From Escherichia phage FL38: a stretch of 64,000 nucleotides of DNA. Location of the stretch: the sequence record PP400784. One strand, given 5' to 3'. Below are positions 28,902-63,608 of this stretch, one piece after another (position 1 is the stretch's first letter; each line of letters starts with the position of its first letter). Below the pieces are notes generated by a model. The model worked only from the letters and a program-made list of their open reading frames with translations. It did no database searches and was not told the origin of the DNA. The translations under genes and the position numbers were made by a program.

Positions 28902-29215
28902 TATCCTAAAATCCTCACCTTGCGAACACAGATAGTATTGAGTTCTCGCCGTACCCGTTCTTTTTCATATTCAGGAATTTTATATTCGATACCATCCCGA
29001 ACAATTTCAGAAGACCGGATTATGCCAAATTTTCGTTTAGGTACAACCTTGTATTTCGGTTCACCCGCCAATAGACTCTCACAATAATCTATCTGATCAC
29101 ACATTGACGCTAACGCAGCATCATGTGTTTCGCAAGTTAGGACGCGACCCTTCGCGTCCACTGAGTATTGAAAGAATCCGTCTTTATCACGATAACATAC
29201 AGCAAATACATGCAT
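28901..29215 (-). CDS. hypothetical protein (104 aa)
   Basis: ORF coupled to dda. Confidence 0.5.
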   Translation of the reverse strand: MHVFAVCYRDKDGFFQYSVDAKGRVLTCETHDAALASMCDQIDYCESLLAGEPKYKVVPKRKFGIIRSSEIVRDGIEYKIPEYEKERVRRELNTICVRKVRILG

Positions 29216-29970
29216 TATAAACCTACCTTCGCTTTCATCAATTCAATCCACGACGCATCAATCGGAAGCCCGTATTTCACGCGTTCTTTTTGTGCTGGCG
29301 TTAAGTTCTCATACTTAGAAAGAGATTCAATCAAAACGCTGGTATATTTTAGCACGATTTCGGTATTGTTTGCAATAGCCTTAAGTTTTTCTTCTTTCTT
29401 GTTGATTTCGCTAAGTGCTTGCTTGAGATCTGCAATTTTCTGATAACGTTCTTCCATACGGAAGAGAGTATTTTTAATCGCTCGCTCGGCTGCCTCTGCT
29501 TTCTCCGGTTCGTTGTGCTTTTTATGGCGCTCGATTGCTAATTTCTTTTCTTCGATTGCCATTTCCTGATTTTTGATGCGATTCTCGTTAAGTTCGATCC
29601 ACTCGATGTACTTCGCACGTAGGGCAATTTCATCATCAGAAAGTTTACCGTTAGTTCCTAGTTCCTGGATCTCTTTAAGAGATTCGATAGTGTGATTGCC
29701 ACGGAAAGAATTGTATTTCAGTTTAACCGGAATTACATTGCCATCAACATATCCCAGATTGCAATCAATGCGCTCTAAGGAGAGTCCGTCATCACCTTCA
29801 CCGAAAGCCTCACCTGAATAGGCACAATGAGTCTGACGGTAAATGTTACGAACAGTGACTAAGCTCATAGAGAAGTCTTTGTTGCGACGTGAAGCACCAG
29901 CCATGATAGAGTTCAGCCGGAAAACAACCAGCGCCAATTCTTCGTTAGATTTAAAAGCAAACAGTTTCAT
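29215..29970 (-). CDS. hypothetical protein (251 aa) with HNH-like N-terminal motif and coiled-coil C-terminus
   Basis: HCAYSGEAFGEGDDGLSLERIDCNLGYVDGNVIP...NSFRGNH resembles a degenerate HNH motif; Lys/Glu-rich C-terminus. Confidence 0.45.
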   Translation of the reverse strand: MKLFAFKSNEELALVVFRLNSIMAGASRRNKDFSMSLVTVRNIYRQTHCAYSGEAFGEGDDGLSLERIDCNLGYVDGNVIPVKLKYNSFRGNHTIESLKEIQELGTNGKLSDDEIALRAKYIEWIELNENRIKNQEMAIEEKKLAIERHKKHNEPEKAEAAERAIKNTLFRMEERYQKIADLKQALSEINKKEEKLKAIANNTEIVLKYTSVLIESLSKYENLTPAQKERVKYGLPIDASWIELMKAKVGL

Positions 29971-30031
29971 AATTGATTCTCCTTAGTTGGTATGTGTGTA
30001 TTATTGTCTATCTGGTTTGTGCTGTCAACAC

Positions 30032-30535
30032 TTAAATTAAAGAAAATTTGTAAATCTCTATCCGATCGCCATTACACGCGTAAACTTCCTCGATCTCATC
30101 AAGGATCATGGTCGTCCCTGTCTTGTATATGCACTCGCGCTCATCTGCCAACATAGCATACAAAGACAGTCGAGTAGTCGGATTGTCATACTCTTTAGAC
30201 ACCACTCGGTCAATAGCATGTTCGTAATAATTCATGCAAGGCTTGGTAGGTTTTATTGCAATAATCTTTCCTGTTGCATAAACATCGGTCGCAAAGTCCT
30301 CTGCTGTTGATTGCAGTGGCGTAAAGCTCATAGGACGCTCTACAACGAAAGAATCGCCTACAATTAAGGTATCCAGCTTACGACCTTCTCTTTTGCTCAC
30401 ACCGCGATACAAGGCTTCATGATGCACTAACCGCTCAGTCTTTTCGATCAATCCATTAAGGATCGACATATCGATATTTTCTTTAGAGTTCATCACTTCA
30501 TCAATGATGTTAAGTTCTTCTGGTGTAAATTGCAT
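30032..30535 (-). CDS. hypothetical protein, possible ADP-ribosyltransferase-like (ModA/ModB position)
   Basis: 167 aa; candidate R (LYRGV), S-x-T (MSFTP) and E-x-E (ERE) motifs in ART order; synteny with T4 mod genes; speculative. Confidence 0.35.
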   Translation of the reverse strand: MQFTPEELNIIDEVMNSKENIDMSILNGLIEKTERLVHHEALYRGVSKREGRKLDTLIVGDSFVVERPMSFTPLQSTAEDFATDVYATGKIIAIKPTKPCMNYYEHAIDRVVSKEYDNPTTRLSLYAMLADERECIYKTGTTMILDEIEEVYACNGDRIEIYKFSLI

Positions 30536-30604
30536 AATAAAAAAGCCTCCAATCTTTCGACGGGAGGCATAATAAAACCATTATAGAGTAGTGTCAACTA
30601 ATTT

Positions 30605-31129
30605 TTAGTAGCCGCGTTCTTGACGGGCGAAGTTTTCAGCATTTTTCAGATAGTACAGAATAAAGAGTTCTTGAGCGTCAATACCCAGCGGGATCATCTT
30701 TGACAGAATGAAGTGGATCGCGTCCACAAATTCAAATTTCACTTCAAGCTGATCTTCCGGTGACAGTTCAGAGAATTTACGCGCTCGCGCTTCTCCGTGG
30801 TTCTTTTTCCACATTTTCCAGATTGCACTTGCATCTTTACCATTGGACATTCCACCCAGCGATGTGTAAAGCTCTCGTGTTTCGTCTGCGATAGCGTCAT
30901 CCATCCGTTGCATCCAATCCAGCATTTCACCGCAAGTCTCTAGCTTAGTTGGATTTGGGACCCAATCAAATTTTTCGGATAATGCAACCTGCAAACCAGT
31001 TTGCATTTCGAGCATCACCTGAAACGGATCTTTACCTTCTGCAATAGCGTGATGATATGCGGCGATAGCCGCGTTAATATCTTTTTCGTTAACCAGACCA
31101 GCACAAGAATTAAATTCTGACATATTCAC
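30605..31129 (-). CDS. 56: dCTP pyrophosphatase-like (MazG-type) protein
   Basis: 174 aa (T4 gp56 is 171 aa); acidic MazG-like helices; adjacent to primase gene. Confidence 0.6.
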   Translation of the reverse strand: MNMSEFNSCAGLVNEKDINAAIAAYHHAIAEGKDPFQVMLEMQTGLQVALSEKFDWVPNPTKLETCGEMLDWMQRMDDAIADETRELYTSLGGMSNGKDASAIWKMWKKNHGEARARKFSELSPEDQLEVKFEFVDAIHFILSKMIPLGIDAQELFILYYLKNAENFARQERGY

Positions 31130-31137
31130 CTCATTAA

Positions 31138-32166
31138 TTAAAATTTACAATATTTCATAAACCGCATTTTAGCCATCAGACCTTGTACGGTGTTCTCTTT
31201 GATGTATTCCATGATCTGGTCGCGTGTAGCGCCCTCGTCCTGAATCATGGCGTTAACGTCTTTAGAATGCCACGGGCAACGATCCCACAATACAATCTTT
31301 TCCCCTGCATTGATAAACTTTTCCAGTCGGTGCATTGTATCGGCAGACCGTGGTTCCGCATCAAGTACAAACACTCGCTGGTCTGGGAAAGGGATTTCAT
31401 CTAATCCCAAAGTACCGCCAGTAATTGCACACCCGTTATCAATAAACAATGAATCGATCGGACCTTCTAAGAAATACACTGGTTTACTCGGATCGGCGCG
31501 TTCAAGACCATAGACCTTACTCGCTAACTCGTGAGTTTTAATCGTCATATATTTGGTCTTTCCGTAATCCTTTCTCAATGCTCGCCCCTGAATGGATTCT
31601 ATCTTGTTCTCGCGGTTAAAGATAGGAATCACTAAACGCGGTTCAGGTTGTGGATTCTTGAAAGTATCAGCCTTAATGTGATTTGCTACCTTTTGCCATT
31701 CTCTCGTGAAATACAGAAGATCCCATTTATCGTGAGGAATACAGCGATCACTGACATACTTTATTATAGGATGATTAGCCGGAAGAGTATCTAATCTCTC
31801 GCAGAAAGGCAATGTTTGCACTTTCTTAATCTCCGGCTTTTCTACCTTTTTCAGTGGCTTGAACGTGGTGTTCTTGTGGTCGCCTTGTTCCTTCCGTCGT
31901 TCCATAAGCCATTCCCTGAATAGGTCCGGCTTATACTGTTTGAGAAATTCACCTAACGGCTGATTGTAGTTACAGTTGAAACAGCCGCAACGCAAACTAT
32001 CCTTATAGGTATAGATACGGAATCGCGCTTGAGTATGATTTTTCTTTGAGTCACCGCAGATCGGACAACTACAGACCAGCGTAAATGAGCTAGTATGCAA
32101 CCGTTTAAAATTTCGTTCGCCGTATATGGCTTTTTCCGCTATTTCATAATCTGCGTAGTAAATCAT
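31138..32166 (-). CDS. 61: DNA primase
   Basis: 342 aa, same as T4 gp61; N-terminal zinc ribbon CSCPICGD...CGCFNC; TOPRIM region. Confidence 0.9.
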   Translation of the reverse strand: MIYYADYEIAEKAIYGERNFKRLHTSSFTLVCSCPICGDSKKNHTQARFRIYTYKDSLRCGCFNCNYNQPLGEFLKQYKPDLFREWLMERRKEQGDHKNTTFKPLKKVEKPEIKKVQTLPFCERLDTLPANHPIIKYVSDRCIPHDKWDLLYFTREWQKVANHIKADTFKNPQPEPRLVIPIFNRENKIESIQGRALRKDYGKTKYMTIKTHELASKVYGLERADPSKPVYFLEGPIDSLFIDNGCAITGGTLGLDEIPFPDQRVFVLDAEPRSADTMHRLEKFINAGEKIVLWDRCPWHSKDVNAMIQDEGATRDQIMEYIKENTVQGLMAKMRFMKYCKF

Positions 32167-41651: not shown

Positions 41652-42341
41652 TTAGTCGGTGTAGCTGGAGTCAAGGTCACACGCGATCATATAAGATACG
41701 GTTTCACTTGCCAGCCATACAGCCTTACGGCGAGTGAAGCTCAGTTTGTAATCGCCGAAGTCAGTAGCAACCAGTTTCATGTTATCTTTACGAATAAAGA
41801 AATGGAAGTCTGCGGTTCCGGTATATTCGCCCATATCAAGACAAAACATCTCATTAGGATTATTTTTGTCAATCTCTTCCCAACCTTTGATCATCAGACG
41901 ACCATCAATCGGAAGAAATTCAAGGCGATCCACTTTAAGCTGATTGCTCATTTTCATAAGCTGTTTCAGATCGTCATTGCTCAGTTCGTAATCTACATCG
42001 CTTGCAGGTGGAGTAACTCGGCCTTTCGGTGATACGATAGCAGCAGCACTAGCACCAGGGTAATTAATTTTCAGACGATCATTAGACACACGAATGTTAC
42101 CAGTGCGGTCATCAACCGTAATATCTGCTTCATCGCCTACCAGATTCAGAATACCCAAGAAAGAGTTAAGATCATAGATCCCAATTTCGTGTTCCAGTTC
42201 TTGATTCAGAGTCGCTTCACCATATACAACGTTTGTCATGTTTTTGGTGATCAGGACGTTTCCTTTTTTCAGGATGATACCTGGGTTAATAGCGGAAAAG
42301 TTTTTCAGGGTAGCAATGGTTTCTTTAGTCAGTTTCATCAA
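41652..42341 (-). CDS. 45: sliding clamp
   Basis: 229 aa; N-terminus MKL.K.T.A.LKNF..IN.GI.LK and overall similarity to T4 gp45 (228 aa). Confidence 0.9.
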   Translation of the reverse strand: MMKLTKETIATLKNFSAINPGIILKKGNVLITKNMTNVVYGEATLNQELEHEIGIYDLNSFLGILNLVGDEADITVDDRTGNIRVSNDRLKINYPGASAAAIVSPKGRVTPPASDVDYELSNDDLKQLMKMSNQLKVDRLEFLPIDGRLMIKGWEEIDKNNPNEMFCLDMGEYTGTADFHFFIRKDNMKLVATDFGDYKLSFTRRKAVWLASETVSYMIACDLDSSYTD

Positions 42342-63578: not shown

Positions 63579-63608
63579 AGTATAGGGGATCACCGATCCC
63601 CTGTCAAC
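63579..63608 (-). promoter_or_regulatory. early promoter with palindromic spacer (type I): GTTGACA-GGGGATCGGTGATCCCC-TATACT
   Basis: Perfect 17-nt palindrome as spacer. Confidence 0.6.

Follow-up and report, generated by a model that had tools for sequence, protein, structure and literature searches.

A hairpin shared by an early promoter, a predicted terminator and the Shine-Dalgarno sequence of a modB-like gene in Escherichia phage FL38

How can a gene be translated when its only apparent ribosome-binding sequence lies inside a hairpin that would also end the transcripts arriving from the gene before it? This question is raised by an intergenic region of Escherichia phage FL38 (sequence record PP400784), from which a stretch of 64,000 nucleotides, referred to here as the window, was analysed. 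The window belongs to a Krischvirus, i.e. an RB49-like, T4-type coliphage, and the region in question separates gene 56 from a modB-like ADP-ribosyltransferase (ART) gene on the minus strand. An initial annotation had proposed that the Shine-Dalgarno (SD) sequence of the latter gene is sequestered in the terminator hairpin of gene 56, such that its translation would depend on read-through or on melting of the hairpin. The reading favoured here, which we hold to be rather probable, is that the 56/modB intergenic region acts as a compact promoter-early stem-loop (PeSL) cassette, in which RNA coming from upstream would be terminated or masked and modB's own RNA would be left free.

Promoter, hairpin and Shine-Dalgarno sequence ahead of modB

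Read 5' to 3' on the minus strand, the region consists of the gene 56 stop codon TAA, the bases aaattag, the hexamer TTGACA, a 17-nt spacer, TATTAT, GCCTCC, cgtcgaaagatt, GGAGGC, TTTTTTATT and the modB start codon ATG (30535). A GCCTCC-(12 nt)-GGAGGC hairpin before this ATG had been recognised in the initial annotation, and both the minus-strand sequence and RNA folding, the check that had been suggested for it, bear it out, as the element folds as GCCTCC-c-GTC-GAAA-GAT-t-GGAGGC (30568-30545, minus strand) and is followed by T6ATT and the modB ATG. The 12-nt 'loop' cgtcgaaagatt is not open, since it holds three extra pairs (GUC/GAU), a GAAA tetraloop and one C.U mismatch. The hairpin alone, with a stem of 6 + 3 bp, has a folding energy of -13.8 kcal/mol, and a 43-nt segment reaches -15.0 kcal/mol as compared with -5.0 +/- 2.2 kcal/mol in 200 dinucleotide shuffles, none of which was equally stable (0/200; z = -4.66).

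The 3' side of this stem also carries the translation signal of modB. GGAGG lies 10 nt ahead of ATG 30535 and it is the sole SD candidate, as had been claimed for the GGAGGC arm, because the interval between stem and ATG holds nothing purine-rich. The extent to which this signal is buried was judged by a survey in which 75 annotated gene starts in the first 50 kb of the window were folded with 70 nt of upstream context, an SD-like motif being locatable in 61 of them. Within this set the modB SD is the most occluded, being fully paired (unpaired probability 0.00) in the read-through context, and modB is the only gene whose SD falls inside a terminator hairpin, other terminators preceding a separate SD.

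With regard to termination, the modB site has a GC-rich hairpin directly before at least five U residues, as expected of an intrinsic terminator, and only three other strong hairpin-plus-T-run terminators are present on the same coding strand across all 64 kb of the window. The gene whose transcripts reach it is gene 56, with its stop codon TAA at 30607-30605. A TransTerm terminator ('modB<--56', score 100) has been predicted at the identical site of RB49 (Nolan et al. 2006 supplements) and, with a window-to-RB49 coordinate offset of 21115, this published terminator maps to window 30545-30568. Furthermore, the GenBank records of Makalu_001 and Makalu_002 place a ribosome_binding_site feature inside a terminator feature, and a terminator is also listed under the match to TB34. 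The earlier proposal of a gene 56 terminator is upheld by the RB49 prediction and the Makalu annotations, and hairpin plus U-tract are, by prediction, a canonical intrinsic terminator at which gene 56 transcripts would end in vivo. A search of the literature located no Term-seq or in vitro termination data for the site, while an Rfam scan of 29800-31400 returned two sub-threshold chance matches and no known RNA family. A bidirectional terminator was considered and rejected, as the plus strand has neither a T-run after the stem nor any genes here.

Directly upstream of the hairpin lies a sigma-70 promoter, TTGACA-N17-TATTAT (30597-30569, minus strand), which a promoter scan scored as an 11/12 consensus match with the optimal 17-bp spacer, and whose -10 box adjoins the 5' arm without a gap, the arm beginning at position +1 past the box. 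When promoters matching at least 11/12 positions with a spacer of 16-18 bp were counted over the whole window, the minus strand had 31 and the plus strand none, compared with 1.4 +/- 1.1 in composition-matched Markov simulations. A match of this quality in the FL38 genome is almost certainly a real early promoter and, because of this excess, so is the match at modB. The skew of 31 to 0 between the strands is, in its own right, an instance of the extreme bias, in strand and in promoter class, typical of RB49 early promoters. The modB promoter is annotated in the GEC-3S record, its RB49 counterpart is the predicted early promoter Pe:9496 (supplements of Nolan et al. 2006), and this published promoter model has its 3' end at RB49 9446, which corresponds to window 30561. 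According to the usual sigma-70 spacing, transcription would start at C30562 or G30561, i.e. at the first or second base past the 5' arm, and a start at G30561 would place CCC at -3 to -1, in line with the preference of RB49 early promoters for C at these positions (Nolan et al.). A small open reading frame (ORF) from ATG 30570, overlapping the -10 box and the 5' arm, was rejected as a candidate gene, as it lacks an SD, is out of the modB frame and has GTG in one relative.

The consequence of such a start was explored by folding transcripts with varied 5' ends and computing the unpaired probability of the SD together with the cost of opening the SD-to-AUG segment. For every 5' end between 30568 and 30700 the SD is computed to be closed (unpaired probability 0.000), and the probability is 0.006 for a 5' end at 30567, 0.25 at 30565, 0.29 at 30563, 0.51 at 30562 and 0.56 at 30561; the opening cost is 13.3 kcal/mol in read-through RNA versus 3.2 kcal/mol in promoter-initiated RNA. 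These values suggest a mechanism that would rest on a triple overlap, GCCTCC serving as promoter discriminator and as terminator 5' arm, and GGAGGC as terminator 3' arm and as modB SD. Polymerase coming from genes 61-56 would copy both arms, the hairpin would form before the U-tract and most transcripts would stop there, while in those reading through from upstream the SD would stay locked in the stem. RNA from the modB promoter, on the other hand, would begin at about C30562/G30561 and, because this predicted start falls just past the 5' arm, it could not form the stem, so that it would escape termination and expose an SD that is about 50% open. In this manner production of ModB, a toxic host-modifying ART, would depend solely on the gene's own immediate-early promoter and be shielded from transcription that enters from upstream. 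The terminator/ribosome-binding-site coupling of the initial annotation is thus retained in part: the terminator and the masking of the SD stand, whereas the dependence of modB translation on read-through or hairpin melting is not borne out, since the overlooked 11/12 promoter adjoins the 5' arm and a canonical start, 7-8 nt past its -10 box, would give a transcript without the stem.

Likeness to PeSL cassettes and to other masking systems

PeSLs have been described as cassettes of RB49 and phi1 (Arbiol et al. 2010, PMC2839356; Comeau et al. 2014, PMC4122927), in which stop codon, AT-rich stretch, sigma-70 promoter, stem-loop, SD and ATG follow each other in this order (PMC2839356). It has been proposed that the stem-loop terminates upstream transcription (PMC2839356; PMC4122927), and reporter assays have given evidence that other PeSLs act as promoters and terminators (Arbiol et al. 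2010, PMC2839356). The modB locus is a PeSL-type promoter/terminator cassette, as it occurs in the same phage group and has the same element order from upstream stop to ATG: a sigma-70-like early promoter in an RB49-type intergenic region, preceded by an AT-rich stretch (the stop-to--35 sequence TAAaaattag is 9/10 A/T), a stable hairpin (-13.8 kcal/mol) from the first base past the -10 box, and an SD with a start codon at the 3' end, the SD here being part of the stem. Among the five positional PeSL subclasses, one has its stem between the -10 box and the start site, immediately ahead of the latter.

The modB cassette does not follow the G-run/loop/C-run pattern of PeSLs ('GN-loop-CN'), its polarity being reversed (GCCTCC...GGAGGC), although this pattern is frequent and not obligatory (PMC2839356; PMC4122927). 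In the usual RB49 PeSL, a G-run/loop/C-run stem sits in the spacer or over the -10 box and a separate SD follows downstream, whereas at modB the stem begins with its C-rich arm, the SD itself makes up the 3' arm and a genuine U-tract comes after. Many typical PeSLs are present in the window, for example GGGAGTAG-TAAGAT-ACTCCC-A, with the stem in the spacer or spanning the -10 box and a C-rich 3' arm filling the discriminator, and in all of them transcription is predicted to start at the stem or past it, as the 3' arm ends inside the spacer or at +6 to +9. The C-rich discriminator therefore pairs backwards with a spacer G-run in a typical PeSL, but forwards with the G-rich SD at modB. Masking of the SD is not mentioned in those parts of the PeSL papers' text that were searched, where the SD is treated as a separate element.

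Compared with canonical intrinsic terminators, the modB hairpin has in common the GC-rich stem and the immediate U6, but it sits downstream of a promoter -10 box, unlike the terminator at 55096-55077, which sits upstream of its promoter. At this other site (window 55096-55030, minus strand) the terminator GCCGATCC-gaaa-GGGTCGGC, with T5 and -14.4 kcal/mol, precedes a 12/12 promoter by 12 nt, i.e. the conventional terminator-then-promoter order, which is inverted at modB. A further combination is found at 41674-41586 (minus strand), between gene 45 (clamp) and gene 44 (clamp loader), where an 11/12 promoter, TTGACT-N17-TATAAT, has its -10 box just downstream of the annotated gene 45 stop, reached by the A of its TAA, and is followed by the hairpin GGGGAGTAT-aaa-ATACTCCCC (-13.1 kcal/mol) and GTTTTA. 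The 5' arm of this hairpin starts exactly at +7, and the promoter's own RNA, unlike that of modB, might carry the whole hairpin.

Masking of a ribosome site in long transcripts is known for the T4 genes e, soc, 49 and I-TevI, where a promoter inside the hairpin gives a translatable RNA (PMC3014915). The likeness to modB is close, as computation finds the modB SD paired in upstream-initiated RNA and the predicted internal start skips the 5' part of the helix, and by analogy the modB cassette probably works by the same T4-style logic. Two differences stand out. The internal promoter of the T4 genes is late (gp55-dependent) and delays expression, whereas modB has an early sigma-70 promoter, which would restrict its expression to the early phase; and the T4 hairpins are not intrinsic terminators, whereas the Krischvirus modB helix is predicted to be one as well.

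Conservation of the modB leader and its genomic setting

Within Krischvirus, the cassette varies only in its T-run (T5, T6 or T7), at one base of the loop and in the -10 box, for which there is one TATTGT variant. The latter occurs in the metagenomic Krischvirus IMGVR_UViG_3300045988_033703, which has TATTGT for TATTAT (window 30570) and an otherwise identical cassette. Exact searches for the hairpin in IMG/VR gave matches at the same locus only, and thus the modB stem is not a dispersed repeat. In JSE the TTGACA-N17-TATTAT arrangement is kept although the spacer sequence differs and a TATAAT found within the spacer of the window is absent. JSE (524-1444) and G37-3 (515-1444) also carry an oppositely oriented HNH/homing endonuclease gene of about 0.9 kb between 56 and modB; it overlaps the 3' end of gene 56, the insertion corresponds to window ~30598-30604, and the sequence matches that of the window again from precisely the TTGACA -35 box onwards. 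Rearrangement breakpoints at the cassette are a feature of PeSLs that is matched by this insertion ending at the modB -35 box. In a more divergent IMG/VR relative, whose ModB is 75% identical, the block 30480-30659 (the cassette and about 50 nt on each side) is 93-98% identical and the flanking coding DNA 68-88%. The intergenic segments 29940-29999 (modB/srd) and 30480-30659 (56/modB) both stand out as islands of 93-100% identity within coding DNA of 68-88%, a pattern that fits either selection on the cassettes or recombination at them.

A wider sample comprised T4, RB69, S16, Kanagawavirus Q7622 and 19 IMG/VR loci (contigs up to ~178 kb). Every sampled modB locus has an early promoter, GTTTAC(A), N17-18, TATGAT or a variant of it, which in RB69 is the published Pe:13466 (Nolan 2006), and a hairpin (-16 to -23 kcal/mol) in which -10 box and discriminator together form the 5' arm, while GGAGG, spacer and AUG form the 3' arm. 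Of its 13-19 pairs, 12-17 are situated upstream of the canonical start. The T4 GenBank records have no promoter features at modB, and neither RB69 modA nor the 'RNA polymerase ADP-ribosylase' gene of phiC120 shows clear pairing between promoter and ribosome site.

For the Tevenvirinae, leaders were aligned by anchoring on the -10 box and on the pairing partner of its last T. In this alignment 91.5% of the cells are paired, compared with 34-60% when the partner is slid by 1-3 columns, compensatory changes occur in 7 of the 13 pairs, and the covariation score is reached by none of 500 shuffles. The first two discriminator positions each show three Watson-Crick types (AU/GC/CG and AU/GC/UA, respectively). 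U.G pairs always have the U in the 5' arm, so that the structure belongs specifically to the sense RNA, as opposed to a DNA palindrome.

The order of elements in the window (TATTAT-GCCTCC...GGAGGCT-TTTTT-ATTATG) is the same as in T4 (TATGAT-AGCTTCT...GGAGGCT-ATCATG) and S16 (TATGAT-AGCTTCT...GGAGGCT-ATTATG), the -10 box being followed by the discriminator as 5' arm, a short loop and GGAGG(C/T) as 3' arm. The Tevenvirinae helix, of 13-19 bp, takes in the -10 box and the AUG and lacks a U-tract, whereas in Krischvirus a run of T5-T7 interrupts the lower helix, the upper helix is the terminator and G.U pairs are replaced by G-C. The Krischvirus hairpin looks like the Tevenvirinae device into which a T-run was inserted and whose upper stem was tightened to give a terminator, the two being putatively homologous. 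It is conceivable, with a chance that we put somewhat short of even, that modB translation is promoter-gated across T4-type phages, i.e. that, as in every lineage sampled, the ribosome-binding site finds its complement in the -10 box and discriminator of the early promoter of modB itself, so that read-through RNA stays silent, and that in Krischvirus a T-run between the SD arm and ATTATG converted the upper helix into a terminator.

As for the setting of the cassette, the 1.4 kb around it are 98.9-99.9% identical to Krischvirus coliphages including Delraymugoa, GEC-3S, RB49 and phi1, with Delraymugoa at 99.9% identity to the window over the 1.4 kb searched. The gene order on the minus strand is primase 61, dCTPase 56, the modB-like gene, srd, dda.1 and dda (Table 1). 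The 167-aa product of the modB-like gene has ~29% identity to ModA/ModB of T4-type phages (tblastn), matches PHROG 832 ('RNA polymerase ADP-ribosylase') at 7e-21 and retains the invariant R, S and ExE columns of the R-S-ExE motif. The neighbouring srd product (window 29215-29970, minus strand), a homologue of the 'anti-sigma factor' Srd, also matches the HNH endonuclease, endonuclease and endonuclease VII PHROGs over residues ~20-170, with E values of 1e-10 to 1e-12.

Table 1. Features of the 56/modB region in the order of transcription (MFE, minimum free energy).
Feature	Window position	Strand	Basis
Gene 56 (dCTP/dUTP pyrophosphatase)	30605..31123	-	ORF list; Delraymugoa annotation; Pfam dUTPase_2
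A/T-rich stretch aaattag, UP-element-like	30598..30604	-	sequence
-35 hexamer TTGACA	30592..30597	-	promoter scan; GEC-3S minus_35_signal; inside RB49 Pe:9496 model; JSE/G37-3 homology break
-10 hexamer TATTAT	30569..30574	-	promoter scan; GEC-3S annotation; conserved in JSE
5' arm GCCTCC, also promoter discriminator (positions 1-6 past -10 box)	30563..30568	-	folding; geometry survey
Predicted modB start, C30562 or G30561 (7th/8th nt past -10 box)	30561..30562	-	sigma-70 spacing
Apical hairpin: C.U mismatch, 3-bp GUC/GAU stem, GAAA tetraloop	30551..30562	-	MFE and centroid structures
3' arm GGAGGC; GGAGG (30550-30546) is the modB SD	30545..30550	-	sequence; folding; Makalu records
U-tract TTTTTTATT, doubling as SD-to-AUG spacer	30536..30544	-	hairpin/T-run scan
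modB-like ADP-ribosyltransferase gene, 167 aa	30032..30535	-	tblastn; PHROG 832; conserved columns

Alternative explanations and biological meaning

Several points weigh against the reading of promoter-dependent unmasking. The start at C30562/G30561 is derived from spacing rules, and a start at least 2 nt upstream of the expected one would partly restore the stem (openness 0.25 at 30565 and 0.006 at 30567). The RB49 promoter model gives a low score here (11.3, compared with 28.9 for the neighbouring srd promoter), and a terminator located downstream of a promoter gives it no protection from occlusion by incoming polymerases. The stem is invariant in all Krischvirus relatives in GenBank and IMG/VR, so that there is no covariation support for the modB hairpin in this genus. 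In the Tevenvirinae covariation alignment one anchor per sequence was taken from the sequence's own fold, and unanchored MAFFT plus RNAalifold on the same modB leaders gave mis-registered arms and a weak consensus. Lastly, a literature search located no 5'-end, 3'-end or expression data for any Krischvirus.

Among the rival explanations, the one that survives best, although we regard it as unlikely, is that of an ordinary terminator whose overlap with the SD is incidental, translation proceeding through a U-rich leader that binds S1, or through a weak SD, and no gating taking place. The U-rich UUUUUUAUU directly before the AUG would suit such a mechanism, the 3' side of the stem could be G-rich merely because terminators are GC-rich, and terminators near the next gene are common in a compact genome. 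However, modB is alone in the 50 kb surveyed in having its SD enclosed by a terminator hairpin, and distant genera, whose stem is no terminator, likewise have the modB ribosome site masked by promoter-proximal sequence, with compensatory changes.

Self-attenuation has been weighed as a second possibility, in which transcription would start at or upstream of 30568, from a TATAAT in the spacer (30585-30580) or through a short discriminator, and the RNA would carry the full hairpin. This is quite unlikely, and the same low probability is given to the outcome attached to it, namely that most of this RNA would be terminated after about 30 nt and the rest poorly translated, keeping a toxic enzyme at trace levels. 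Such restraint would be in keeping with the lethality of over-expressed ModB to cells, the TATAAT hexamer is perfect, and the cassette at 41674, upstream of the clamp-loader gene, does have a 5' arm that starts exactly at +7. On the other hand, the published promoter model ends at 30561, and all Tevenvirinae modB loci have the -10 box in the 5' arm, which is impossible in RNA from that promoter. The spacer TATAAT itself was rejected as the true -10 box, as it has just a 3/6 match to the -35 element at 17 bp and is absent in JSE.

A further rival, along the lines of the initial annotation, is that modB has no transcript of its own and is expressed only from read-through RNA of gene 56, its translation requiring the hairpin to melt. 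We consider this very unlikely. While the SD is indeed fully paired in every transcript that carries the 5' arm, and hairpin and U-tract are canonical, an 11/12 consensus promoter adjoins the stem, and opening it would cost ~13 kcal/mol. A ribosome terminating at the gene 56 stop codon cannot melt the stem, because the two are 36 nt apart, and translational coupling from gene 56 was rejected on this ground. Moreover, in JSE and G37-3 the endonuclease gene parts gene 56 from the cassette, yet promoter and hairpin are intact.

Scarcely credible, finally, is that the hairpin mainly shields GGAG from the RegB endoribonuclease or stabilises the 3' end of gene 56 mRNA: terminator hairpins in general stabilise RNA 3' ends, and the GGAG of T4 early SDs is cut by RegB unless secondary structure blocks the cleavage, but GGAGGCUUUUUU fits the RegB/S1 consensus GGAGRAYARAA poorly (C at position 6, U-rich and not A-rich tail), and such a role would be compatible with the preferred reading of promoter-dependent unmasking instead of competing with it. 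In favour of shielding, T4 modB RNA has been noted to resist RegB in vitro, apparently because it is stably structured, although cleavage does occur in vivo (Durand et al. 2006, PMC1702504), an observation that hints at the promoter/ribosome-site hairpin of the Tevenvirinae; this behaviour would fit, and the link is our own, an in vivo mRNA that lacks the 5' arm. In the window, many early genes served by PeSLs share the SD context AAGGAGAATCAA(A/C/T) (minus strand; for example those with promoters at 63607, 59707, 53913, 30028, 16695 and 15395), and GGAGAAUCAAA closely matches the RegB/S1 cleavage consensus, which modB GGAGGCUUUUUU does not.

The significance for the window itself is small, as PeSLs are a known element type and both promoter and terminator had been predicted at the identical RB49 position in 2006 (Nolan). 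What is added is the exact triple overlap, together with a conserved helix between the modB promoter and ribosome site that shows compensatory changes across genera, an element for which no description was found in the literature searched. In concrete terms, six promoter bases and the SD are held in common with the terminator in one 34-nt stretch, which would shield modB from transcription coming from upstream and still allow its own mRNA to be translated, and the same masking logic, with its compensatory changes, appears to be conserved from T4 to RB69, S16 and Kanagawavirus-like phages. ModB attracts interest at present as the enzyme that RNAylates host proteins (PMC10468400). Promoter gating, if true, would explain why T4 modB RNA resists RegB in vitro and is nevertheless cut in vivo. 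Translation solely from its own promoter would, if true, bear on the dose and timing of ModB as well as on the cloning and engineering of modB, and promoter gating would then provide a hard-wired, early-only window for the expression of a toxic ADP-ribosylating and RNAylating enzyme.

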